64,000 nucleotides of DNA from Staphylococcus phage Machias. A program made the translations under genes and the position numbers. This document shows, in pieces, positions 1,283-59,498 of the stretch. The stretch lies in sequence record MW349128.1. One strand, written 5' to 3'. Numbering within the stretch: the stretch's first letter is position 1; the number at the start of each line of letters is the position of its first letter. Under the pieces are notes generated by a model. The model saw only the letters and a program-made list of their open reading frames with translations, ran no database searches and was not told the origin of the DNA.

Positions 1283-2070
1283 CGCAAACAGTTGGGTTAA
1301 TTTAGGTAGCTCAATTAAAAAATTATTAATTGCTGAAAAGTTTAAAAATAATCAGCATCACTAATTTAGTGTTCAACGACTAAATATAATAATATAATTC
1401 AAATATACTTCCTTTATAAAAGGAGGAAAATAATGAAAGAAATATGGAAAGACATTAAAGATTTTGAAAATTACTATAAAATATCCAATACTGGTAAAGT
1501 TAAATCGGTTTCAAGATATGTATATAATGATTCTTTAAAAGGTAAAGATAAAAGAATGCTTATTAAAGAAAGAGTATTAAAAACAAGAATAAATAAAAAT
1601 GGTTATGAAGATGTTCAATTATATAGAAATAATAAGAAGCATACAAGAAGAATACACCGTTTAGTTGCAGAGAATTTTATCGAAAATAAAGATATTGATA
1701 AAAATGTAGTTAATCATATTGACGGTAATAAATTAAATAACAATTTATCTAATTTAGAATGGATGTCAGTATTAGAAAATAATTTACATGCTATAGAAAA
1801 TAATCTTCATAAAACTGATAAAATGGAAGAATCATTAAAAAAGAGAAGAAAACCAGTAGCACAAATAGATAAAGAAACAGATAAAATTATAAAAGAATAT
1901 GAAAGTGCTAAATTTGCAGCGGAAGAATTAAATATAGATAGAAAAGGAATACAAGCAGTTGCAAATGGTTATAGAAATAGTAAAACTTACAAAAATTTTA
2001 AATGGAAATATATTTGAATTTAAAAGATATAGTCTAATCTTTATACAATTGTATAAAGTTAATATAAATG
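1283..2070 (+). mobile_element. group I intron 1 of polB (about 788 nt) carrying an HNH ORF in the loop between the R and S elements
   Basis: P element TAATTGCTGAAAAG (1327), Q AATCAGCATC (1352), R GTTCAACGACTAAATAT (1373), S AGATATAGTCTAATCT (2028), terminal ...AATATAAATG with omega-G at 2070. The splice restores the frame (t + tc = TTC Phe). Confidence 0.65.
1433..2017 (+). CDS. intron-encoded HNH homing endonuclease (NUMOD4-like N-terminus plus HNH)
   Basis: Strong RBS AAAGGAGGAAAATAATG. N-terminal WKDIKDFENYYKISNTGKVKS motif. HNH core HRLVAENF...VNHIDGNKLNNNLSNLEW. Confidence 0.85.
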   Translation: MKEIWKDIKDFENYYKISNTGKVKSVSRYVYNDSLKGKDKRMLIKERVLKTRINKNGYEDVQLYRNNKKHTRRIHRLVAENFIENKDIDKNVVNHIDGNKLNNNLSNLEWMSVLENNLHAIENNLHKTDKMEESLKKRRKPVAQIDKETDKIIKEYESAKFAAEELNIDRKGIQAVANGYRNSKTYKNFKWKYI

Positions 2071-2360
2071 TCCCTGAACCAGGAATGGCTGAAATTAATA
2101 TTATAACTGTAGTTGATTGGAGTAAACGTAAATGTTTAACATTTGCATTAAAATATGATACAGATAATTATAATGAAGTTATGACAGATAAAACTAAATT
2201 AATGGAAGATCTAAATAATATTTATAATAATAAAGATAGCGAGATTGGAGAAGATTTAGGTTTAGAATTTGAAATATATGAATTAGATACTGAAATGGAA
2301 ATTATTAAATCATTCTTATACTATATTAATGAAATTAGTAAGCCTGATATATGTACGGCT
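2071..2360 (+). CDS. family B DNA polymerase, exon 2 (region between Exo I and Exo II)
   Basis: Open frame FPEPGMAEINIITVVD... up to ...PDICTA. Joins exon 3 to give ICTA-WNLDFDFATIF, an Exo II-like ITGWNxxxFDxxY context. Confidence 0.6.
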
Positions 2361-3447
2361 TGAGAAACACACTGGGTCGTGTAAAACCTTTTTAATTGCT
2401 GGAACGTCCTTATTGCTTAGTGAGCTACAACGTGACTGGTAACGGTGAGCGTGATATGCTTAAAAATCATTAAGATTGGATAATCAGCAGCGAAGACTCT
2501 ATAAATCCTTTTCAAGAAAGGATGATTAATATGAATTATAAACCGAAAAATAAAAAGAAAATAACCAATGAAGATTGGAAAGAAATTGTCAAAGAATTAG
2601 GTAATGATGAATATGAAGTATTAGGAGATTACCTGGGTACAAAAAACAAAATTGAAATGAAACATAAAATATGTGGAGAGACATTTTTTATGACACCAAA
2701 TAATTTTAAAATAAGTGAAAATCGTTGTCCTATCTGTTCTATAAAGAAAGTTTCAGAAAAACGTAGGAAGAAGACAAAGGAATTAAATGAAAAAATAAAA
2801 GAAGTTCTTGATGATTCTTATGAATTTAAATTGAACGGTAATGAAACTGTTCATAATAAAATAAAAGTAAAACATAAACAATGTGGAAACGAATACAGTG
2901 TTTTAATAAGACATATAATTTATGATAAAAATAAATGTAGTAAATGTCAAGATTTTGTTAATTCAAGAGATGAAAAAGAAATAAATAAATTCCTTATAGA
3001 AATGGGCGTAGATTTCGAAAGACAATATAAATTTGAAGATGACAAAGTAAAAAATCTTAGATTTGACTTTGCAGTTTTTAAAAATAACGAAATCAAACTT
3101 ATAGAATTTGATGGTGAATTTCATTTTAAAGAAAAATTTGGTGGACCAAAAGCATTTGAGAAAGTAGTATACAATGACTATCTCAAAAATAAATTTTGTT
3201 TTGACAATAACATAAAATTACTTAGAATACCTTATTGGGAAAGTAATAATAAAAAAGAAATAATAAAAAGGTTTATAGAGTAACGTTCAACGACTATCGA
3301 AAAGTGAGCATTATGTCGAGAGGACCTATTGCAATATAACTGAGTAGAGTACACTTTTAATTAAGTGGAAAAAGAAGGGTATGTAGAGTAACGTCTATAT
3401 ACAAGATATAGTCTATCTTTCAATAAAATATATTTTATTGAAATTTG
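2361..3447 (+). mobile_element. group I intron 2 of polB (about 1.09 kb) carrying an endonuclease ORF between the Q and R elements
   Basis: P-like TTTAATTGCTGG (2391), Q-like AATCAGCAGC (2478), R GTTCAACGACTA (3288), S AGATATAGTCTATCT (3405), 3' hairpin CAATAAAATAT/ATTTTATTG. The 5' part is near-identical to the intron in the beta gene at 32400-32578 (minus strand). Boundaries are accurate to a few nt. Confidence 0.55.
2522..3283 (+). CDS. intron-encoded homing endonuclease, two zinc-ribbon modules plus an EDxHD/Vsr-like (PD-(D/E)xK-type) nuclease domain
   Basis: HKICGETF...CPICS and HKQCGNEY...CSKCQ modules; C-terminal RFDFAVF...IEFDGEFHF (E-D-x-H pattern). The alternative ATG at 2531 has better SD spacing. 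Confidence 0.55.
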   Translation: MINMNYKPKNKKKITNEDWKEIVKELGNDEYEVLGDYLGTKNKIEMKHKICGETFFMTPNNFKISENRCPICSIKKVSEKRRKKTKELNEKIKEVLDDSYEFKLNGNETVHNKIKVKHKQCGNEYSVLIRHIIYDKNKCSKCQDFVNSRDEKEINKFLIEMGVDFERQYKFEDDKVKNLRFDFAVFKNNEIKLIEFDGEFHFKEKFGGPKAFEKVVYNDYLKNKFCFDNNIKLLRIPYWESNNKKEIIKRFIE

Positions 3448-29458: not shown

Positions 29459-32400
29459 TTAAATCATATCTTTTACTTTACGTTTTAATTCTATTAAAGC
29501 TTTATTTGTGAATAGCATCATATAAATATCAACTGTCATACGAGAGACAATACTTAATGGAGAGAATACAGCTTCGATTTCCTCATCAGGTCTATATTCC
29601 GCATAAGGAGATTCATTTGGAGGAGTTACATCAGCAACTACAGTTTTACAAGCTCCATAGAAACTAATTTTATCTCCAACACTCATATCATCTTCATACT
29701 CAGTGAAGATTTCAATAAGAACTCCATCAACTTTTTCTCCTTTAATTTTCTCTGTATTAATTTTATCAACTGCAGCGATATCTACATCAATACCAGGTAA
29801 AGTTTCTTTATTATTTTTAATTCCAGATTTATACTCTTTATATTTATCATTTGATTTTTTAATGTAATTATTAACTAATTTAGCTAAACTATCAGTCATA
29901 TTTTCAATATCATCATTATAATAAATATTAATCTTTTTAATATTACCTGTATATTTACTTCTAACAGCTCGGTTAGCTATATCTTGAATATCTTGTTCAA
30001 ATTCACTACCAATTTTATCTAATAAAGAACCAATACCTTCTTCATCGAATGAAGTTTCAAATATCATTAAAGGATCTCCTGTACGTACTTTCTGACCTTC
30101 TTTAACTATATATTGAATATTTGTGTTTGATGGAATATTTACTGTTTTCTTCATAGTAACTTTAGTAGACATTGCTTCAGACATACTACTAGAAATAATA
30201 GAACTATCTTCATAAGTCATTTATATTAGCTATTATATTTTTATAATAGATTAGACTATATCAAATTCATTAGTATTAATGAATAATCATATTTAGTCGT
30301 TGAACTCTATAAATGTAGAGATGCTGATTAATTTAATATTTCTCAGCAATTAATAATTTTTTGACATTACATTACTATAATGAAAGGCATTTATAATACC
30401 ATATGAGCTAGCTACAGATACTTTAGATAATTTACCTGAAGTGAATTGAATATCATTATTTTTACCAGATCCAGCAAAGAAATTATTATTTTTAGCAAGT
30501 ATTTGACCTTTATTAAAAGTGTCATCTACATTAAATTGTGGATCAAGTTTATTAGATTGATAAAAACCTGAGTTAGAGTTTTTGGCTAATTTTTCAGATA
30601 TATCAACAATATCTTTTTCACCATTGATATATTCCACTGTCATTAAACCAGTTTTCTCGTTAATTTTTAATACTTTACCATCTTGTTTAGCTTTAAAAGC
30701 AAATGTATCTGATAATTGATAAGCTAAAGATTTATCAACACCAGATCCAACTAATGGTTTACTATTAGTTTTTGTTGGAATTACGTGCTTGGCTTGAGTC
30801 AGATTATCTTAATACACTTTGTTTATTGTGTATTAGTTCTTAATGAACTTCTTTAAAATAAATTAAAGCTGAGACTATATCAAATACCATTTAGGTATAA
30901 TCTTATTTAGTCGTTGAACAATTTGATTGATGCTGATTAATTTAATTATTATTTTCTCAGCAATTAAAGATTTTTCTATTATTATATTACTATAATAAAG
31001 GGCATTCATATACCAGTCATTCCTATACGTGGACTATCTGCATGTTTTGAGCTGAATGGGTTGAGCAATTCTAATGGAGTGTATAGAGATGTATCACTCG
31101 CATCTTTCTTACCGCCATCTGTATAACCTCTAGTGGATTTAATTAGTGAATCATATGAAAGCTGTCTGACCACTCCTCAAATATCTTCAATAATGGGCGT
31201 TAACCATTACCAGTTCTCTTATGAACTTCTTTAGGATTTCCCTAAAAGTTGAGACTATATCAAATACCATCAATTAATGGTATAGTTCTTTTTCCACTCA
31301 CTTGAGTGTACTCTACTTCATCAAATATATCTTTGAAATAATTTTTATTAAAATCAGTGTAATAATCTTTTTCATTTAATATTTTTTTATTTCTTATAAT
31401 GAGTATATTTGATTTTTCGATAGTCGTTGAACTATTTAAAATATCATGAAAGTTATCTAAAAAGAAATTGATATTATTTTTATTTATACGAATTAAAGTT
31501 AAATTATTTTTTAAACAAAAGTCATTTTTTATGTGGTCTTTTAGTGCATTTTCTTTGACATTTTCTAATTTTTGATATTTAGAATTATTTCTATACTTAA
31601 AATGTTGAACCCCATCAAATTCCAAAAGTATATTTTCGTTATTTAATGTAAATAAGAAATCAAATCTAAATCTATTAGTATTTTTAGAATAATAAAAATC
31701 ATTAAAAGACTTTTCTCTTTCATAATTTATATTATTTTCATCAAAGAATTTTCTAATTGATATTTCACCATTAGACTTAATAGCACAAATAGGACATCTG
31801 TGCCCTGCACTTACAAAACTGTTTGCACGCATCTCAAATACTTTACCACACTTATGATGTAATATTTTCATTTTAGTGAATAGATTAGTATATGTTTGTC
31901 CATCAATAAGAGAGTATTCATTTTTGCCTAAATATTCTATTTCTTTTTTAAAACTTTCAATTGTTCTTTTTTTTATATTTAGAACATTTAGGACACTTCT
32001 TATAATATAACAAATTATTTGGAGTGGATTTAAATGTTTCATTGCATAGTGTATGTCTAAAATTTATTTTTATTTTACTCCCTTTATATCTTTCTAAAGG
32101 TATAAACAAATCATAGATATTCTCATTTTTTAAACTATAAATAAAATCTTCATGATTTTTATTTATACCGCCTACACATTTGACACATTTATTTTTTCCT
32201 TCAAACATTTGTTTAGGTTTTCGTTTAAATTTAAAACCACAATTATGTTTTAAATTTATTTCAGTATCATAGTCTACGTATTCTTCATAAAAAATTTCGT
32301 ATTCTTTAAATTTCTCATAATTATCATTTACTTTCTTTTTAAAACTTTCTTTATCAATTTTTCTCACATTATCACCCCAGATTATAATAAAATTATGTTA

Positions 32401-35400
32401 AAGGGGAATGTGATAAAAATAATATTTTAAACAGCTGCTGATTGTCCAATCTTAATGATTTTTAAGCATATCACGCTTACTGTTGCCAGTTACGTTGTAG
32501 CTCATTAAGCTCTAAGGATCTCCCAGCAATTAAGAACTTTTCGACATTACATCACTGTAATGAAGGGCAGTATTATTTACCTTGTTTGAGTCAGGCGTGC
32601 TTATTCCTAATACACCTTGCATACTTTCACTGTATGAACGAATATCAGGTTCATATGATTGTTCATTATTACGTCCAGCAGGACCTTTAAATGTAACAGA
32701 AGTCATCTTATCAATCTCTAAAGATGGATTAAGATCAGATACTTCATCTACAGTAGGTTGTTCCATTATAGTTTTGATTAATTGGTCTTGCTTAACAGAA
32801 ATATTCTTAGGATTCTTATTATTGTAAGAGTCTGAATATTCTTTATATGCGTTTGCAATCATTTTATATATTAAAGCATTAACTTGTTCTGGACCACGTA
32901 CACGATATATTCCCATGTCATTGTGTTCTCTAGCAGTTACATCTTCTAGCATAGTATTAGCTAAGAGTAATAATTCCACCATAGTTTCCGGTAATTTTAA
33001 ATCTCTTAATACATCTTCTGTAATTGGATCCATTGCTAAATCTAATGCATTTTTAATTCCTTTACCAACATTACGACTATAGAATTTATCATTAAAGTAT
33101 TCTAAGTAAGGTGTCTCACTATTAAATTCTTCAAAGTCATATTGTGAAGTAGGAATAGTATTTAATCCTGATAATAATAAATCATATCTTAATTTATCTG
33201 TTGAATAAATAAGATAACCATCTTGGAATTTAATTTTATTCTTCTTATCTTTAATAGTTATTCTTTCATTTTCTTTAACAAACTTATAATCAACTTCATA
33301 GAGATCAAGAATACTAGTTAAACCTTTATAGAAACCTAATAACACTATTGTAGGGATTAATTTATTAGTAATTTTAACACGAGAGAATGCCATTGTTTTA
33401 CTAGCTTGAATATTTTTACTGAATTTTTTATCTATTAGACTAAAATCAATATTATCTTCAAGTTGTTCAATAATATAATCTGTGATATTAATATTCATAG
33501 ATTCTATATTACTTTTAGTAGCTTTAAAAATAATAGATTCTGTAGTATTTGATAATATTAATTTAGATTTGTTTGAATTATAACCGATAGGATAGTATTT
33601 ATCTTTATCGTAATCAATCTCACTTAAAGTTTTACTTTCTGAAATAACTTTTTTAAGATTTCTTTGATTAAAATCAATTATCAAATCATCTTTAGAGAAT
33701 CTTAATATATTTTTAGATAAATTATTATACAACACAGAAGTTAAATATTCTTTATTAATTAAAGATGAATTACCTTTTTGAATACTAATATCATTTTTAT
33801 CTTTAATGTATTCTAGTACTTGTTTATCTTCAATAACTTTTTTAAGCCATTCAGTTTCAGAATTTTCTTTGCTACCAAATTTTTCAATGATGAATTTATT
33901 ATAGTTAGTTGTAATCCAAACTGTATCCGGTCTATATTTAACAATAGGATACATCATTAATTGTTTAGTTAGTACCTTTTTACCACCATTTAATTTTAAA
34001 TATTTACCATCAATAATTTTAGGTACATCAAATTTTACATTATGATTAATCCCATCAGGACTCTTAAATTGAACTTTTACAGTATTCTTTAATGATTGAG
34101 AATCTGAATTATCTTCTACATTCATTTTGCTAATGAATACAGGTATTTCTTCATTATCATTAAAACTCTTCATAATATTTACAAAGTCTTTATTAAATGT
34201 CTTTTTCATATAAGATAAGTCAAAATCATTCGAAGATACATTGTTAATTGCTTCATCATTAATACTATTAACATTTTCATTAATTTCTCTATCAATAACA
34301 TTATCTTCAGAAAAACTAAAATCTTCTAATTTTTCAAGATATTCATCTTGATTTTTAGCTAATGATAATATCTTTTTAGAATTCTTTAATGCAGTGTCTC
34401 CAATATATGATTTATTTTTAATATCTCTTTTAATTGATTTAAATGAATCATTCTTATCAAGTACATCATTATATAATGTATCTTCATCAATATCAATAAG
34501 ATCATTATTATCATTTAATTCTTTTTCAATTATCATTGCAATATTGTATTCATCATTAATATCCATATCAATATTATCATTAGATTTAATATATCTTAAT
34601 GTATCATCTATTTTCTTAGATATTTTTTCCATCTTAGAATCTTCAATGTCTTGATTAATTTCATCTTTATCATTATCTTGTAATTCAACTGGATCAATAT
34701 CTTTAACATTATTAAATGATTTCTTTTTAATAGTTGAATCTATAGCTTCTGTATTATCATCATCTTCAACATTAGAAATTTCATCTGTATCCATTTGTTG
34801 AGTATTTAAATCAATAGCTCTTCTTAATCTTTGTCTTAATCTATTATTCAATTTATTATAATCTTTAAAATCAAATTTAAACATTATACCGTTCTCAATA
34901 GAAACAAATAAAGCTACTACATTTTGATTTTCTTTGTGAGGTAATTCTTCCTGATTCTTAATCATCATAAATAAACTTGACATAAAATCTTTTGTATTTG
35001 GTCTAATAGCTTCTTGAGAAGATTTATTGTATCCATCTACATTAATTACATATAATAAATTTTCATATTCTTCTGGATTATTTAAATTATTATAAGTATT
35101 TTTAATTGAATCTAATACAGTTTTAAAATTCTTAGTCATTAACGATTTATTTTCAAGATTGATAAATTTACTTGAATCAACTATATAATTTCTACCTTTA
35201 AATAATTTCTCATTTCTTTCTACTCTATAAGATTTAATTGATTTACTTTTAATTTCTTGTTGATAATCTGAAATATTAGTAATTAATCTTGATTTTCTAT
35301 TTGTTGTTCTATATATTCTAGGAGTATAAATATTCTTGAAATTTTGATAATATAATATACCACTATTTAAGAATTCTATAAATGAATTTTCTTTAAAACC

Positions 35401-35517
35401 TTTATAAATTATTAATTGGTTTTTCTTTTGATCCTTAATATTTTCATCTATAGCTTTAATCTTATATCCTGAAATTGAATAGAATTTTAAATTCTTTAAT
35501 CTATTAAGATACTTCAC
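29459..35517 (-). CDS. multisubunit RNA polymerase beta-like subunit. Proposed exons (minus strand) 35517..32579, 31177..31012, 30799..30398, 30217..29459, interrupted by three group I introns.
   Basis: GTG start with AAAGGA RBS. ...FKGPAGRNNEQSYEPDIRSYSESMQGVLGISTPDSNKV | GVVRQLSY... parallels RpoB GPGGL...[39 protein letters not shown] parallels NPLGVPSRMNIGQ. VDD...AGSGKNNDIQF...ASSYG parallels the C-terminal VDDK...GGQRFGEMEVW..EAYGAAY. The proposed junctions give 4266 nt (1422 codons) in one frame. Confidence 0.65.
30218..30397 (-). mobile_element. ORF-less minimal group I intron (about 180 nt) in the beta-like gene
   Basis: P TTAATTGCTGAGAA, Q AATCAGCATC, R GTTCAACGACTAAATAT, S TTGATATAGTCTAATCT, terminal ...AATATAAATG whose ATG is picked up by the ORF tracker as the start of 29459..30220. 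The 5' end follows ...SSYG ggt. Confidence 0.55.
30800..31011 (-). mobile_element. ORF-less minimal group I intron (about 212 nt) in the beta-like gene
   Basis: 5' end ggt|ATATGAATGCCCTTTATTATAGTAAT is identical to the first intron of the second beta-prime gene. P/Q/R/S elements present. 3' end ...TAATCTG|ACTCAAGCC. Confidence 0.55.
31178..32578 (-). mobile_element. group I intron (about 1.4 kb) in the beta-like gene carrying a frameshifted homing-endonuclease gene
   Basis: 5' part (read on the minus strand from 32578) TTAATTGCTGGGAGATCCTTAGAGCTTAATGAGCTACAACGTAACTGGCAACAGTAAGCGTGATATGCTTAAAAATCATTAAGATTGGACAATCAGCAGC is near-identical to polB intron 2. S-like TTTGATATAGTCTCAACTTT lies at the 3' side. 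Confidence 0.5.
31260..32367 (-). pseudogene. intron-encoded EDxHD-type homing endonuclease split into two overlapping ORFs in different frames (31957..32367 and 31260..32042)
   Basis: The upstream ORF has two Zn modules (HNCGFKF...CVKCV; LCNETF...CPKCS). The downstream ORF has a third module (HHKCGKVF...CPICA) plus RFRFDFLF...LLEFDGVQHF. The frames differ (coordinates mod 3 = 0 versus 2). Confidence 0.45.
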
Positions 35518-35833
35518 TTATTATTCAATTCCTTTCATTTAATAAATTTTATATATGTACTTGTTTTCTTTATCTTTTTTATGTAATTTAAGGAGAAATA
35601 ATTTATTAGATTTTGATATAATCAAAATCTAAATATACCCCCTCTAATATTATATTTTTTATATATTAAAATATTTTATATTTTAATATATTATAATAAT
35701 TATATTATTATATAAATATAATATTCCGGAGGTTTTCAAATTTTTTACGAGATATTTTTATAAATTACAAAAATATAAAATTGATGATAACATTCAAATA
35801 TTACAAATAATATATGAAAGAAGTGAAACTAAA

Positions 35834-37387
35834 TTGGTTAATATGATTTATGATAAAAAAGATTTATCTGAGAAAGAAGTATCAACTTTATTAAGTATAA
35901 AAAAAGAAGATATTACTCTTGATAAACTTAAAGAATTATTTGCATTTAGACAAAATACACAACCAATGTTTAACCCTAGCGATAGATTTAAACTTAAAAA
36001 AGATTTAGTTTATAATAGTAAAGATGAGAGAACAACAGTTGGAAGATATATATTTAATAAATTTATATTAGACAATAAAATAGGACCTATTATAGGATAT
36101 ATGAATAAAGATATGGGAGGATCAGGTGTAGGAAATCTACAATCTGAACTATCTAGTTTATTACTTAATGATGTTATTACAACTAAAGATATGAATATGT
36201 ATATTGATAAACTTCAATGGCTCGGTTTCTCCATAGCAGGATTTATTAATTCTAGCTTAACAACTACAATGATGGTTGCTCCCGATAAAGTTAAACAAAA
36301 GAAAGAAGAATTACTAGAGAAATATGGTAAAGCATTAAATACTCCTGGTGAAGAATTGAATGCTATTAGTGCTATTGAAAAAGAATTAATTAAGTTAAGT
36401 AAGGAAGAATTAGAAGGTTTAGCAGATCTTGATATTTATGATAGTGGATCAAGAGGTAGTTTTGGAAATAACTTCAAGTTAACAGCTCTTATTCGTGGAG
36501 CAAATAAAAACTTTGCTGATCCTAGTAAAATACGTATTGCTAAGAGTTCTTTAGCTGATGGAATTGATCCAGAAGAATTATATATGTTTGGTGATATTAT
36601 GACAGCTGGTTCAGCTGGACGTGCTTTAGGTATATGAATGCCCTTTATTATAGTAATATAATAATAGAAAAATTATTAATTGCTGAGAAGATATAAACTT
36701 AATCAGCATCAATCAGAATGATTGTTCAACGACTAAATATAATTAAACTCATAAAGAGTTTTTGATATAGTCTGATCTATATTAAATTAATATAGATTAA
36801 CATAAATGACTCAAGAAGGTGGGTAAATTAGATGCTCACAATAAATTCTATTAATTGCTAGAATGTTAAAACTAACTAGCATCAACTTTATTAAGTTGTT
36901 CAACGACTAAATATAGAAATGATTAAATTCATAAGATATAGTCTAATCTATAATAAAATATAGATAATAAAATGATCAAGCTAAAAAACTTATGTCCGCT
37001 TTCCAAACAACTGTATTAGATAAACAAGGTTCTGATTGTAGAACAAAACATACATTAAAATTAACATTAACTAAAGATAATGCGAGTCTTTTATTATATA
37101 GATATTTTGAAGATACTTCAGGAAGAAAAGGTCAATTAATACTATTAACGCCTGAAAATGTGGATGAACACATGGGTAAAGTATTGAACTTCAGAAGTCC
37201 TATGTATTGTGCAAGTGAAGATATTTGTAGTAAATGTGCAGGAGAACTCCCTTACAAACTAGGTATAGAAAATATTGGACTATTGGTTAACCAAGTGGCT
37301 CAAGCAATTGTAACAAGCTCCATGAAGTCTTTCCATGATATGACAATTAAACAAAATGAAATAGATATCGAAGATTATATTTATTAA
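35834..37387 (+). CDS. second multisubunit RNA polymerase beta-prime C-terminal-like subunit; proposed exons 35834..36631, 36809..36824 (16-nt micro-exon), 36975..37387
   Basis: ...MTAGSAGRALG + TQEGG(Y) + QAKKLMSAFQTTVLDKQGSDCRTKHT parallels beta-prime [95 protein letters not shown] parallels region G. The exon lengths 798+16+413 = 1227 nt are in frame. Confidence 0.65.
36632..36808 (+). mobile_element. ORF-less minimal group I intron A (177 nt) in the second beta-prime gene
   Basis: ATATGAATGCCCTTTATTATAG..., P TTAATTGCTGAGAAG, Q AATCAGCATC, R GTTCAACGACTAAATAT, S TTGATATAGTCTGATCT, ends CATAAATG. Confidence 0.55.
36825..36974 (+). mobile_element. ORF-less minimal group I intron B (150 nt) in the second beta-prime gene
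   Basis: AAATTAGATGCTCACAATAAATTCTA..., P TTAATTGCTAGAATG, Q AACTAGCATC (compensatory GCUAG/CUAGC versus GCUGA/UCAGC), R GTTCAACGACTAAATAT, S AAGATATAGTCTAATCT, ends ATAAAATG (omega-G 36974). Confidence 0.5.
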
Positions 37388-37434
37388 AAGCGTAATATAT
37401 TGAAATATAAACATATATTATAATAATGAAGAAA

Positions 37435-37504
37435 GTTTATCTAGCTCAGTTGGTAGAGCAATGATTTTCATCATGTGTCCGGGGTTCGATCCCTCGGATA
37501 AGCT
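37435..37504 (+). tRNA. tRNA-like gene with a 4-nt anticodon loop (probable tRNA pseudogene/degenerate tRNA)
   Basis: Acceptor GTTTATC/GATAAGC, D arm GCTC-AGTTGGTA-GAGC, T arm CGGGG-TTCGATC-CCTCG, variable GTGTC. The anticodon stem ATGAT/ATCAT encloses only TTTC. Confidence 0.35.
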
Positions 37505-37857
37505 TTTTTTGGTCTAAAATTCTTATTTATTAAAAAATTTTATTTAAAAATATTAATTAACTATATAGTATAAATCTATAATGATCCTCGTCAAATTATT
37601 ATAGATTTTTTTTTTAGTTTTTGATTTAACTAAAAAATATAATAGATTAAATTCTATTATAACTTACTTTGTCGTTTGTTGTTGCTTTAAAAATGTTCCT
37701 TTGATTTCTTGTTTCTATTTTTAATATGTCATGGTTTTAAATAGAAATCCATACGCCTCCTTACGTATAATTAAAAATGAATAGATATTATTATATATTT
37801 ATTTACTTAAAAGAGTGCATAGATGATAAATGTACTCTTTTATTTTTTTTTTATTAA

Positions 37858-37936: not shown

Positions 37937-38039
37937 GTTCCTATAGCTCAATGGTCAGAGCGTACGGATTTCATGAATTATACCTGGATAGGATAATTTA
38001 TGGATCTGTAGGTTATGAGTTCGAATCTCATTAGGAACA
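37937..38039 (+). tRNA. tRNA-like gene (103 nt) with canonical acceptor/D/T arms and a 38-nt anticodon loop; reads as tRNA-Glu(TTC) carrying a 31-nt insertion at the canonical 37/38 intron position
   Basis: Acceptor GTTCCTA/TAGGAAC, D arm GCTC-AATGGTCA-GAGC, T arm ATGAG-TTCGAAT-CTCAT, anticodon stem TACGG/CTGTA (one G-U). The loop ATTTCA + 31 nt + T contains its own AATTAT/ATAATT hairpin. Confidence 0.4.
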
Positions 38040-58355: not shown

Positions 58356-59498
58356 ATGGATGTAGAAATAATTGAAAGAATAATAAATTCTAAAAAATTA
58401 AATTACAATAAAATGACGGAATTGGTTAGACCTTATATAGAGGGAGGAAGATTTAGAGGAAATACTAATAATAATAATGTAACCATTTATATAGACATTA
58501 ATAACGTTATTAAGCAATTATATTCACCTCAAGTTTCAGAGAATTTTACTCATTTAAAAACTAAAAATAGATTGAATTTAGTTGTTGAATTAGTAAATAT
58601 TATAGGACATTATAGACATTTCTTTGCAAGTAGATTAAATATGCATTCTAGATTCTTTTTATTCTATTCAGATAAAGAATCAATATATCACACTTCAGTT
58701 GATCCTGATTATAAAAAAGAATATTACAAGAAAATGAATGAAGATAATATAACTTATAGAGATATAAATAAGACTATATCAATAACATTAGAATTAGTTA
58801 AAACAATCGTAAAGTATATACCTAATGCATATTATATTGATACTTATAAAATAGAACCTACTATATTACCTTATTATATTATGGAAAAAACAACTATAGA
58901 TAATGAAAATGATTATTCTTTAATTGTAAGTAATGATAAAATATATAGACAATTATTAGATTATAAAGATAGACTACTACTTTTAGAATTAAGAGGATCT
59001 GAGAAGAGTAAAGTTATTTCCAAAGAAAATATAAAAGGAGAAATATTTAGTTCTAGCACAAAGAAAGATATTAATGATTTTATGAATATTGATTCTGGGA
59101 TCATAGATATTTTTAACTTATTTTCAGATCATAAGGATCAAGAATACAAATCTATATCTGGATATGGACCAGTAACTACAATTAAACTATTAGATAGAAT
59201 GATAGAAGATACAAAATTATCTCCTTTAAAAGAATATAATAATGAAACACTGTTAAGAGATACTTTTAAAGATTATTTAAAAGAAGAAAAATTAGAAGAG
59301 TTAATCAAACGCTTTAAGTTATTTGATCAAAAACACATTGTTGATGAAATTGATGGAAGTAAGATACAAAATATTTTATCTTCTCAAATAATAGATTTTA
59401 ATGACCCTTTAGAAATAAAAAGACTTAATGATGAATTATTTATAAATTCATTTATAAATATAGATTATTTATTTGAAGGAGAAATTAATAGAAACTAA
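58356..59498 (+). CDS. hypothetical protein (380 aa)
   Basis: RBS GAAAGGATG; no motifs. Confidence 0.5.
   Translation: MDVEIIERIINSKKLNYNKMTELVRPYIEGGRFRGNTNNNNVTIYIDINNVIKQLYSPQVSENFTHLKTKNRLNLVVELVNIIGHYRHFFASRLNMHSRFFLFYSDKESIYHTSVDPDYKKEYYKKMNEDNITYRDINKTISITLELVKTIVKYIPNAYYIDTYKIEPTILPYYIMEKTTIDNENDYSLIVSNDKIYRQLLDYKDRLLLLELRGSEKSKVISKENIKGEIFSSSTKKDINDFMNIDSGIIDIFNLFSDHKDQEYKSISGYGPVTTIKLLDRMIEDTKLSPLKEYNNETLLRDTFKDYLKEEKLEELIKRFKLFDQKHIVDEIDGSKIQNILSSQIIDFNDPLEIKRLNDELFINSFINIDYLFEGEINRN

Follow-up and report, generated by a model that had tools for sequence, protein, structure and literature searches.

Two miniature group I introns around a 16-nt exon in a virion RNA polymerase beta-prime gene of a Staphylococcus jumbo phage

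An RNA polymerase beta-prime-like gene in the genome of Staphylococcus phage Machias (sequence record MW349128.1; the 64,000-nucleotide (nt) stretch analysed here is called the window) is interrupted by 343 nt, which raises the question of whether this interruption is a single intron, two introns side by side, or the space between two separate genes. A first-pass annotation had proposed two miniature group I introns, here called introns A and B, that are separated by a 16-nt micro-exon without which the messenger RNA would not stay in frame. The results described below make it very probable that two independently acquired group I introns, neither carrying an open reading frame (ORF), lie 16 nt apart in the part of the virion beta-prime gene that encodes the presumed bridge helix.

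When positions 35800..37400 were compared by blastn with a phage collection, matches were found only in AR9/PBS1-like jumbo phages: the Staphylococcus phages AH12 (96.6% identity), vB_StaM_PB50 (PB50; 93%), and LY01, S6, PALS_2, DC4, Madawaska, MarsHill and SA1 (about 81-82%), and, more distantly, the Bacillus phages AR9 and PBS1. The gene is named 'viral RNA polymerase beta-prime subunit' in the annotated matches. The window is thus that of an AR9/PBS1-like Staphylococcus jumbo phage, and the interrupted gene encodes a fragment of the virion RNA polymerase beta-prime subunit. Early genes of AR9-type phages are transcribed by the polymerase that includes this fragment. Phages of this group have both virion and non-virion multisubunit RNA polymerases, with the subunits spread over several genes (PMC7598289). 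Exon 1 ends with ...GCTTTAGGT, and joining 35834..36631, 36809..36824 and 36975..37387 gives 1227 nt and a 408-amino-acid (aa) product that is colinear with that of S6 through ...GSAGRALGTQEGGYQAKKLMSAFQ... and reads ...ALGTQEGGYQAK... across the junctions. The parallel with a conserved beta-prime segment, which the first-pass annotation had drawn, is borne out by HMMER alignments to solved structures: in a phmmer search of PDB chains, the spliced product aligned to bacterial beta-prime (8i23_D, 8x6f_D and others), with its segment ...agsagralgtqeggyqakklmsafqttvl..sdc facing a beta-prime segment that ends in ..tDC and that we take to be the bridge helix. Pfam gave no match for this divergent product.

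The junctions were defined by comparison with relatives that lack one or both introns. The S6 orthologue (LC680885, 111462..112688) is one uninterrupted coding sequence (CDS) of 1227 nt, equal to the sum of 798, 16 and 413 nt on which the proposed reading frame had been based, and reads ...GCACTAGGT ACTCAAGAAGGAGGGT ATCAGGCT... in DNA and ...GRALG-TQEGGY-QAKQ... in protein over both junctions, whereas PB50 has ...TTAGGT ACTCAAGAAGGTGGGT (intron B) ATCAAGCT.... The lengths of the blastn matches differed stepwise between records, hinting at zero, one or two introns, and the fetched loci agreed: both introns are present in the window, AH12 and LY01, intron B alone in PB50, and neither in S6. By blastn, the gene is uninterrupted in MarsHill, Madawaska, S6, PALS_2, DC4 and SA1. 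A DNA alignment of the window, S6, PB50, LY01 and AH12 placed the boundaries at 36631/36632, 36808/36809, 36824/36825 and 36974/36975, and a separate spliced alignment against S6 gave the identical four boundaries; a 1-nt A/A ambiguity at each intron was settled by the rule that U precedes the 5' splice site and G ends the intron. Intron A is in phase 0, after a Gly codon (GGT), and intron B in phase 1, within a Tyr codon. A search of IMG/VR loci with the spliced protein found no matches and hence no further occupancy states of the site.

Because intron-less S6 and B-only PB50 alleles exist, introns A and B are two independent insertions around a genuine 16-nt coding exon, as had been proposed. 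In S6 the micro-exon is uninterrupted and 15 of its 16 bases are identical, and in PB50 it directly follows exon 1. Between the window and LY01, it is 100% identical, as against 80% for the exons, 87.7% for intron A and 69% for intron B (intron B of PB50 is 97.3% identical to that of the window). A single 343-nt intron is ruled out by the PB50 and S6 alleles. Nor are the twins a nested twintron, as PB50 has intron B alone in exon context and the 16 nt are coding in both S6 and PB50; 'twin' here means that A and B stand side by side. The locus therefore conforms to the Twort orf142 arrangement, in which a very short exon parts two group I introns of one gene; here this exon is 36809..36824, of 16 nt.

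Assignment to group I rests on core strings, covariance-model matches and predicted folds. The two sets of P, Q, R and S elements that the first-pass annotation had recognized between 36631 and 36975 are indeed present: the P strings, containing P4, are AATTGCTGAG at 36678 (intron A) and AATTGCTAGA at 36853 (intron B), the Q strings, containing P4', are TCAGCA at 36703..36708 and CTAGCA at 36876..36881, and the R string GTTCAACGACTA (at 36724 and 36898) and the S string GATATAGTCT (at 36764 and 36935) are exact in both. The R (J6/7-P7) and S (J8/7-P7') elements of both introns fit the consensus positions of the Rfam group I intron model RF00028. Four matches to the composite pattern AATTGC-N30-60-GTTCAACGACTA-N15-45-GATATAGTC were found in the window and none in 100 dinucleotide-preserving shuffles, and the 12-nt R string alone has seven exact occurrences in the window. 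In a search of 801 nt, RF00028 aligned over its full length (1-253) to 36802..36964 (27.2 bits, E 8.7e-5) and to 36602..36795 (26.3 bits, E 1.6e-4). Whole-window Rfam scans, at either the gathering or an E-value threshold, reported no group I intron, a miss that is due to the filters and not to the sequence.

With a few exon bases added, the unconstrained minimum-free-energy (MFE) fold of intron A contains P1, P2 and P4-P9 (z = -4.19), and that of intron B contains P1, P4 with a P5 of 2 base pairs (bp), P6, P7, P8 and P9 (z = -3.23). P3, which cannot show in a nested fold, was assigned from complementary strands, so that both introns have the core helices P3, P4, P6 and P7 in the P3/P7 pseudoknot topology that had been put forward as a check for either half. 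At the 5' splice site of each, the preceding U forms a U.G wobble with the internal guide in P1, and both end with ...AAATG before the exon sequence of intron-less alleles. P1 and P10, for which manual pairing had been advised, are found as follows. The guide GCC of intron A pairs with the exon-1 end GGU, the U.G wobble falling at the splice site and two intron pairs extending the helix, and UGAAU preceding the guide faces the micro-exon start ACUCA as a P10 candidate with four of five pairs; read from the sequence, this P10 covaries in the paralogous intron C, with exon ACUUAU against guide AUAAAU. The guide GCUCAC of intron B pairs with the micro-exon end GUGGGU, and GAU before the guide with the exon-3 start AUC, a P10 that extends to five of six pairs in the window (AUCAAG/UUAGAU) and to a perfect 6 bp in LY01 (AUCAAG/CUUGAU). 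The micro-exon can accordingly be divided into ACUCA (P10 of A), AGAAG (spacer) and GUGGGU (P1 of B); its position 12, which pairs with the guide of B, is A in the intron-less S6 and U in the alleles bearing intron B. Both introns contain about 21% G+C. The lengths given in the first-pass annotation, 177 and 150 nt, are exact, and no ORF of at least 40 aa was found within 36632..36974, so that neither intron has an endonuclease ORF. All coordinates are collected in Table 1.

Table 1. Coordinates of exons, introns and intron elements in the window (^ marks a splice junction).
Feature	Position	Strand	Remarks
Exon 1	35834..36631	+	798 nt; TTG start per annotation of relatives; within ORF 35834..36637; colinear with S6 CDS
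Intron A	36632..36808	+	177-nt group I, without ORF; precisely absent from S6 and PB50; present in AH12 and LY01
Intron A P1	36629-36633 / 36638-36642	+	
Intron A internal guide sequence	36638..36642	+	AUGCC
Intron A P2	36644-36652 / 36657-36664	+	GUAA loop
Intron A P3	36671-36676 / 36739-36744	+	AAUUAU/AUAAUU
Intron A P4	36681-36686 / 36703-36708	+	
Intron A P5	36688-36690 / 36698-36700	+	
Intron A P6	36710-36715 / 36719-36724	+	
Intron A P7	36731-36735 / 36768-36772	+	
Intron A P8	36746-36750 / 36756-36760	+	
Intron A P9	36774-36785 / 36787-36798	+	
Intron A terminal G	36808	+	
Micro-exon	36809..36824	+	16 nt, ACTCAAGAAGGTGGGT; encodes T-Q-E-G-G and the first base of Y
Intron B	36825..36974	+	150-nt group I, without ORF and without P2; precisely absent from S6; alone in PB50
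Intron B P1	36819-36825 / 36833-36839	+	
Intron B internal guide sequence	36833..36839	+	UGCUCAC
Intron B P3	36846-36851 / 36913-36918	+	UUCUAU/AUAGAA
Intron B P4	36856-36861 / 36876-36881	+	
Intron B P5	within 36865-36872	+	vestigial, 2 bp
Intron B P6	36883-36888 / 36893-36898	+	
Intron B P7	36905-36909 / 36939-36943	+	
Intron B P8	36919-36922 / 36929-36932	+	4 bp
Intron B P9	36946-36952 / 36959-36965	+	
Intron B terminal G	36974	+	
Exon 3	36975..37387	+	413 nt including stop codon; starts ATCAAGCT...; Tyr codon completed T^AT
Intron E	32578..31178	-	1401 nt; virion RNA polymerase beta gene; junctions against uninterrupted S6 gene
Intron D	31011..30800	-	212 nt; virion RNA polymerase beta gene; junctions against uninterrupted S6 gene
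Intron C	30397..30218	-	180 nt; virion RNA polymerase beta gene; junctions against uninterrupted S6 gene
Intron 1	~1298..2070		773 nt; gene starting at 814; HNH/NUMOD ORF
Intron 2	2361..3447		1087 nt; gene starting at 814; phrog_559 ORF

The helices are supported by covariation. When IMG/VR was searched for the composite pattern, at least 120 loci with 49 distinct cores of 82-132 nt were obtained, and 15 distinct cores of at most 104 nt, drawn from the window, LY01 and IMG/VR, formed the covariation set. The strands of P3, P4, P6 and P7 were taken at fixed offsets from invariant anchors, and a MAFFT alignment of whole mini introns, which misaligned the variable loops, was not used for pair counts. 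In these 15 mini introns, 96.7% of cells were paired, as compared with 25-54% with slid partners; 11 pairs had changed on both sides (five in P3, two in P4 and four in P6), and the observed covariation score was reached by none of 500 shuffles. The compensatory changes in the P/Q helix, to which the first-pass annotation had drawn attention, are real and correspond to pairs 5 and 6 of P4, which in intron A are G-C and A-U, respectively, and in intron B the reverse, A-U and G-C. The guides were examined at 24 different places of insertion, taken from the window and AH12 and delimited by comparison with the intron-less S6: pairing averaged 4.5 bp with the cognate exon and 3.2 bp with non-cognate exons, a result reached by none of 5000 permutations. 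The anatomy of the two introns, their exact junctions, the independence of their insertions and the covariation of their helices are matters of direct observation.

Several points nevertheless weigh against the reading of A and B as two complete group I introns, each excised correctly. P7 (GACUA/UAGUC) is complementary but invariant, being fixed by the search pattern, and is therefore uninformative for covariation. The P10 of intron A contains a C.A mismatch, and its 3-bp guide (GCC) pairs equally well with GGU at the end of the micro-exon, making mis-splicing conceivable. The separate search of each half with RF00028, suggested as a check, succeeded in that each half matches the full model with E of about 1e-4, and failed in that neither reaches the gathering score of 50, both lying at about half of this threshold; the low scores are attributed to P2, P5 and P8 being missing or shortened and to AT-richness. 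The 2-bp P5 and 4-bp P8 of intron B leave its stand-alone catalytic competence uncertain, and in Bastillevirinae phages, four of eight spliced genes were spliced only in infected cells (PMC11878797). This last observation, together with the few peripheral elements of intron B (no P2, a vestigial P5, a short P8) and the low G+C content of both introns, would also fit introns that are removed in vivo but not autonomously, a phage or host protein (maturase-like or a chaperone) or the neighbouring intron being needed for folding. We consider such dependence possible, yet rather unlikely: no core helix or junction string is damaged, the helices covary, intron A retains a P2 capped by a GNRA loop, and, as B occurs without A in PB50, B does not depend on A.

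For two autonomous introns, the predicted course of events is as follows. Each intron would fold as its own compact ribozyme, A with P1, P2 and P3-P9 and B with P1 and P3-P9, and would remove itself by the two usual transesterifications. The guide of A would hold the exon-1 end GGU and could also hold the first micro-exon bases ACUCA, while that of B would hold the last six micro-exon bases GUGGGU and the first exon-3 bases AUC, so that 11 of the 16 micro-exon bases, none of them used by both introns, could serve splice-site recognition. A and B are identical in their R, S and P7 strings; P3, P4, P6 and the guides differ, and each fold should therefore stay separate, favouring inclusion of the micro-exon. 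With both introns out, the 1227-nt mRNA would encode the 408-aa protein in a layout identical to that of intron-less orthologues. The other outcomes read poorly: unspliced RNA meets a stop at 36637, removal of A alone leads to a stop two codons into intron B, and skipping of the micro-exon causes a frameshift that ends the protein at 280 aa, inside the presumed bridge helix. The AH12, LY01 and PB50 records each name Staphylococcus aureus as host, and these phages are taken to be propagated isolates. Because the alternatives give stops or a frameshift in the polymerase gene of such phages, we infer correct double splicing; its independence of protein and the order in which the introns would leave are likewise inferred.

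The same considerations bear on the idea that the 343 nt act as one composite unit, with the 5' site of A joined to the 3' site of B, either as the main product or as a regulated truncation. Exon skipping is known for the 23-nt exon between introns 2 and 3 of Twort orf142 and for a 34-nt exon of Coxiella (PMC10136302), and the R, S and P7 strings shared by A and B would lend themselves to such an event. The resulting truncation within the bridge helix, however, the presence of the 16 nt in intron-less alleles, and the mutual non-complementarity of P3, P4, P6 and guides between A and B, which disfavours a hybrid ribozyme, make this scarcely credible; engineered introns with differing splice-site recognition elements, moreover, gave exclusive exon inclusion (PMC10136302).

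The remaining alternative is a truly split gene, in which the introns are decayed relics and two polypeptides of 267 and 131 aa are made. This is how the GenBank records of AH12, LY01 and PB50 have it, each with two CDS of which the downstream one is the internal ATG ORF equivalent to 36992..37387, and jumbo-phage RNA polymerase genes are often split into separate genes (PMC7598289); an in-frame ATG does stand at 36992. A split gene, however, would lose TQEGGYQAKKL from the bridge helix, the 16 nt show perfect conservation and fit the frame solely when read as an exon, the compensatory helix changes between the introns of the window and LY01 bespeak selection on RNA structure, and a reading of the sequence reveals no evident Shine-Dalgarno-like motif immediately upstream of 36992. 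We therefore regard a split gene as very improbable and retain two adjacent, separately spliced introns as the best account of the locus. Literature searches found no mention of AH12, LY01 or PB50.

Introns A and B belong to a larger, unannotated group. The window contains seven introns with this core, three of which (E, D and C) split the neighbouring virion RNA polymerase beta gene (35517..29459, - strand), and two more (introns 1 and 2) lie in the gene starting at 814. The ORF of intron 1 (1433..2017), located in P8, encodes an endonuclease with HNH_3 and NUMOD4, and that of intron 2 (2522..3283) corresponds to phrog_559 (Vsr/EDxHD-like). Minus its ORF, intron 1 would measure about 146 nt, and it resembles intron B; for its boundaries, only the P1 and terminal-G rules were used, as alignment of spliced sequence was poor in this region. 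The spliced alignment was clean at most sites but produced artefactual splits at five low-scoring ones (window 1283-2087; AH12 263569, 153927, 135021 and 11272), which were ignored. The endonuclease ORF of intron E (32367..31260, - strand) consists of two overlapping frames with a break near a run of eight A residues: 31957..32367 corresponds to positions 121-246 of the phrog_559 profile and 31260..32042 to positions 247-437, which may represent either a frameshifted pseudogene or a programmed shift, and the downstream ORF passes through the R element of the intron at 31421..31432. A further S-element match at 58771 (- strand), having neither an R or P4 partner nor an RF00028 match, was dismissed as a chance occurrence.

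In the 265-kb genome of AH12, a motif scan found 30 P4/R/S triplets, 29 of them with mini spacing; the cleanly resolved mini introns measure 144-212 nt, and tandem pairs leave exons of 6, 11, 15, 16, 20 and 24 nt. At 119022..118655 (OR455461), an exon of just 6 nt, GCCGAT (Ala-Asp), stands between two mini introns (182 and 180 nt) in the ...GMG-AD-YDGD... segment of the non-virion beta-prime gene, where the intron-less S6 has GCTGAC; we take this segment to be the counterpart of the catalytic NADFDGD motif. At AH12 11725 and 11529 (- strand), mini introns seemingly follow C (...TTGGC^ and ...GATGGC^), with boundaries from the spliced alignment only; a C at these 5' splice sites would place C-A, or some other pair that is not a wobble, in P1. 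By blastn, S6, PALS_2, DC4 and SA1 have no places matching these introns, MarsHill and Madawaska about 7-12, and PB50 and LY01 about 20-28. In DC4, blastn queries containing these introns found no extra copies, and according to the DC4 paper, Rfam detected no introns in its genome. Mini cores occur at the at least 120 IMG/VR loci mentioned above (e.g., L007 8116..8496 and L010 1537..1618), mostly on viral contigs of 200-400 kb, the P4-to-P7' span being as short as 82 nt in the smallest; at these loci, too, tandem pairs are found repeatedly, and their exons are about 100 nt long. Among 185,579 bacterial and archaeal species genomes, the composite pattern had a single match.

How these introns were gained, lost and spread can be approached through their flanks. 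By their exons, the window, AH12 and PB50 form one group, with about 96% identity; LY01 and S6, at 92% identity, form another, and identity between the two groups is about 80%. As LY01 has both introns, S6 has none and PB50 lacks A, gains and losses do not follow the exon phylogeny. Introns A and D, in different genes, are both inserted at GGT^ACTCAAG and are nearly identical over their 5' 45 nt, and the AH12 introns at 118834 and 166996, also in different genes, are both at GCCGAT^(T/G)ATGATGG; the sites of paralogous introns in different genes share 10-15 nt. Such common flanks suggest guide-directed or target-specific transposition. The exons of LY01 stay S6-like up to both splice sites, with the exception of micro-exon position 12 and exon-3 position 5, both of which pair with the guide of B, and of one synonymous position 24 nt upstream of the splice site of A. 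This pattern is compatible alike with old homing, reverse splicing and selection for P1/P10 and does not discriminate among them. One may speculate that the twins belong to a proliferating family of endonuclease-less mini introns (144-212 nt), found almost solely on very large phage contigs, that colonises guide-complementary sites by reverse splicing into RNA followed by DNA copying, the micro-exons of 6-24 nt within active-site motifs of enzymes being a by-product. This route is conceivable because MarsHill, Madawaska and Machias encode a reverse transcriptase of unknown function, and it is kept under consideration on account of the shared target flanks, the guide-target covariation and the lack of a co-conversion tract in LY01 beyond the guide-paired bases; we nonetheless consider it improbable.

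It is worth comparing the locus with known systems, since tandem tiny group I introns around a micro-exon are an arrangement already known from phage Twort and organelles, which is here unusually compact. Like the window gene, Twort orf142 is a staphylococcal phage protein gene with two related adjacent group I introns and a very short internal exon needed for the reading frame. Twort ribozymes are of about 250 nt, and the window introns, at 150 and 177 nt, are far smaller; A and B differ, moreover, in the presence of P2 and have orthogonal P3, P4 and P6, and the window phage, an AR9-like jumbo phage, is unrelated to Twort. The exon between introns 2 and 3 (group IA2) of orf142 is 23 nt long, against 16 nt in the window, and exon skipping was seen there (PMC10136302, summarising Landthaler and Shub 1999). 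Other cases are a 34-nt exon in Coxiella 23S rRNA (PMC10136302), a 1-nt exon in placozoan cox1 (PMC5436844) and an 18-nt spacer in Ophiostoma cob that was interpreted as a pseudoexon (PMC12308204). As in the window, two independent group I introns lie a few nucleotides apart in a highly conserved segment, either coding or of rRNA; their introns, however, are large, often with a homing endonuclease gene, and reside in organellar or bacterial hosts, whereas both members of the window pair are ORF-less miniatures in a phage mRNA. The first-pass annotation had called a micro-exon between two group I introns very unusual: rare it is, but it is documented in Twort, Coxiella, placozoan cox1 and Ophiostoma cob.

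With regard to size, the benchmark small self-splicing intron is the Azoarcus pre-tRNA-Ile group I intron of 205 nt, which, like the window introns, is compactly built, has its P3-P9 core complete and keeps its peripheral elements short. A member of subgroup IC3, it interrupts a tRNA gene and is G+C-rich and thermostable, whereas the window introns are 25-55 nt shorter, AT-rich, situated in an mRNA and putative ribozymes. Group I introns of phages are as a rule much larger than A and B; the non-coding part of those in Bastillevirinae is 350 +/- 108 nt. That A and B would be among the smallest group I introns described holds for introns with a full P3-P9 core but not without this restriction, as fungal rDNA is reported to contain group I introns, putative or degenerate, of only 56-81 nt, with in vitro splicing for one of them (PMC3160393); literature searches gave no usable statement on the 'smallest group I intron'. 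For AR9, MarsHill, Madawaska and Machias, Korn et al. (bioRxiv 10.1101/2020.12.14.422802) reported that genes for RNA polymerase and replication carry group I introns, with exon numbers predicted from protein alignment. In the passages of that preprint considered here, the targets in AR9-like phages are, as in our data, virion and non-virion RNA polymerase subunits, DNA polymerase, gyrase and terminase, and intron content likewise differs between close relatives; these passages treat neither the RNA structures of the introns nor the mini-intron family nor micro-exons.

Two tRNA-like features lie downstream of the interrupted gene. At 37434..37505 (+ strand) is a tRNA with an abnormal anticodon loop, which ARAGORN reports as 'tRNA-???' with a 2-nt anticodon (RF00005, 45.8 bits). 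At 37937..38039 (+ strand) is a tRNA-like gene (RF00005, 54.7 bits) in which a 34-nt insertion lengthens the anticodon arm into a long hairpin; ARAGORN made no call for this gene.

In the AH12, LY01 and PB50 records, an RNA polymerase subunit that is essential appears as two proteins without any stated relation, labelled 'hypothetical' or partial. No intron of the mini family is picked up at standard Rfam thresholds, and gene models in the AR9-like phage group are consequently wrong in a systematic manner at mini-intron sites. If the introns self-splice, natural introns of 144-180 nt that retain the whole P3-P9 core would lend themselves to use as minimal ribozymes, and the 16-nt exon, 11 bases of which are claimed by two ribozymes, would be a natural test bed for how exon skipping is avoided, as would the 6-nt exon of AH12. 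The wider mini-intron family with its micro-exons is a more interesting lead than the window pair itself. The occurrence of A and B together, of B alone or of neither, in a pattern that departs from the exon phylogeny, and the shared target strings provide a tractable system for studying how introns without an endonuclease spread.

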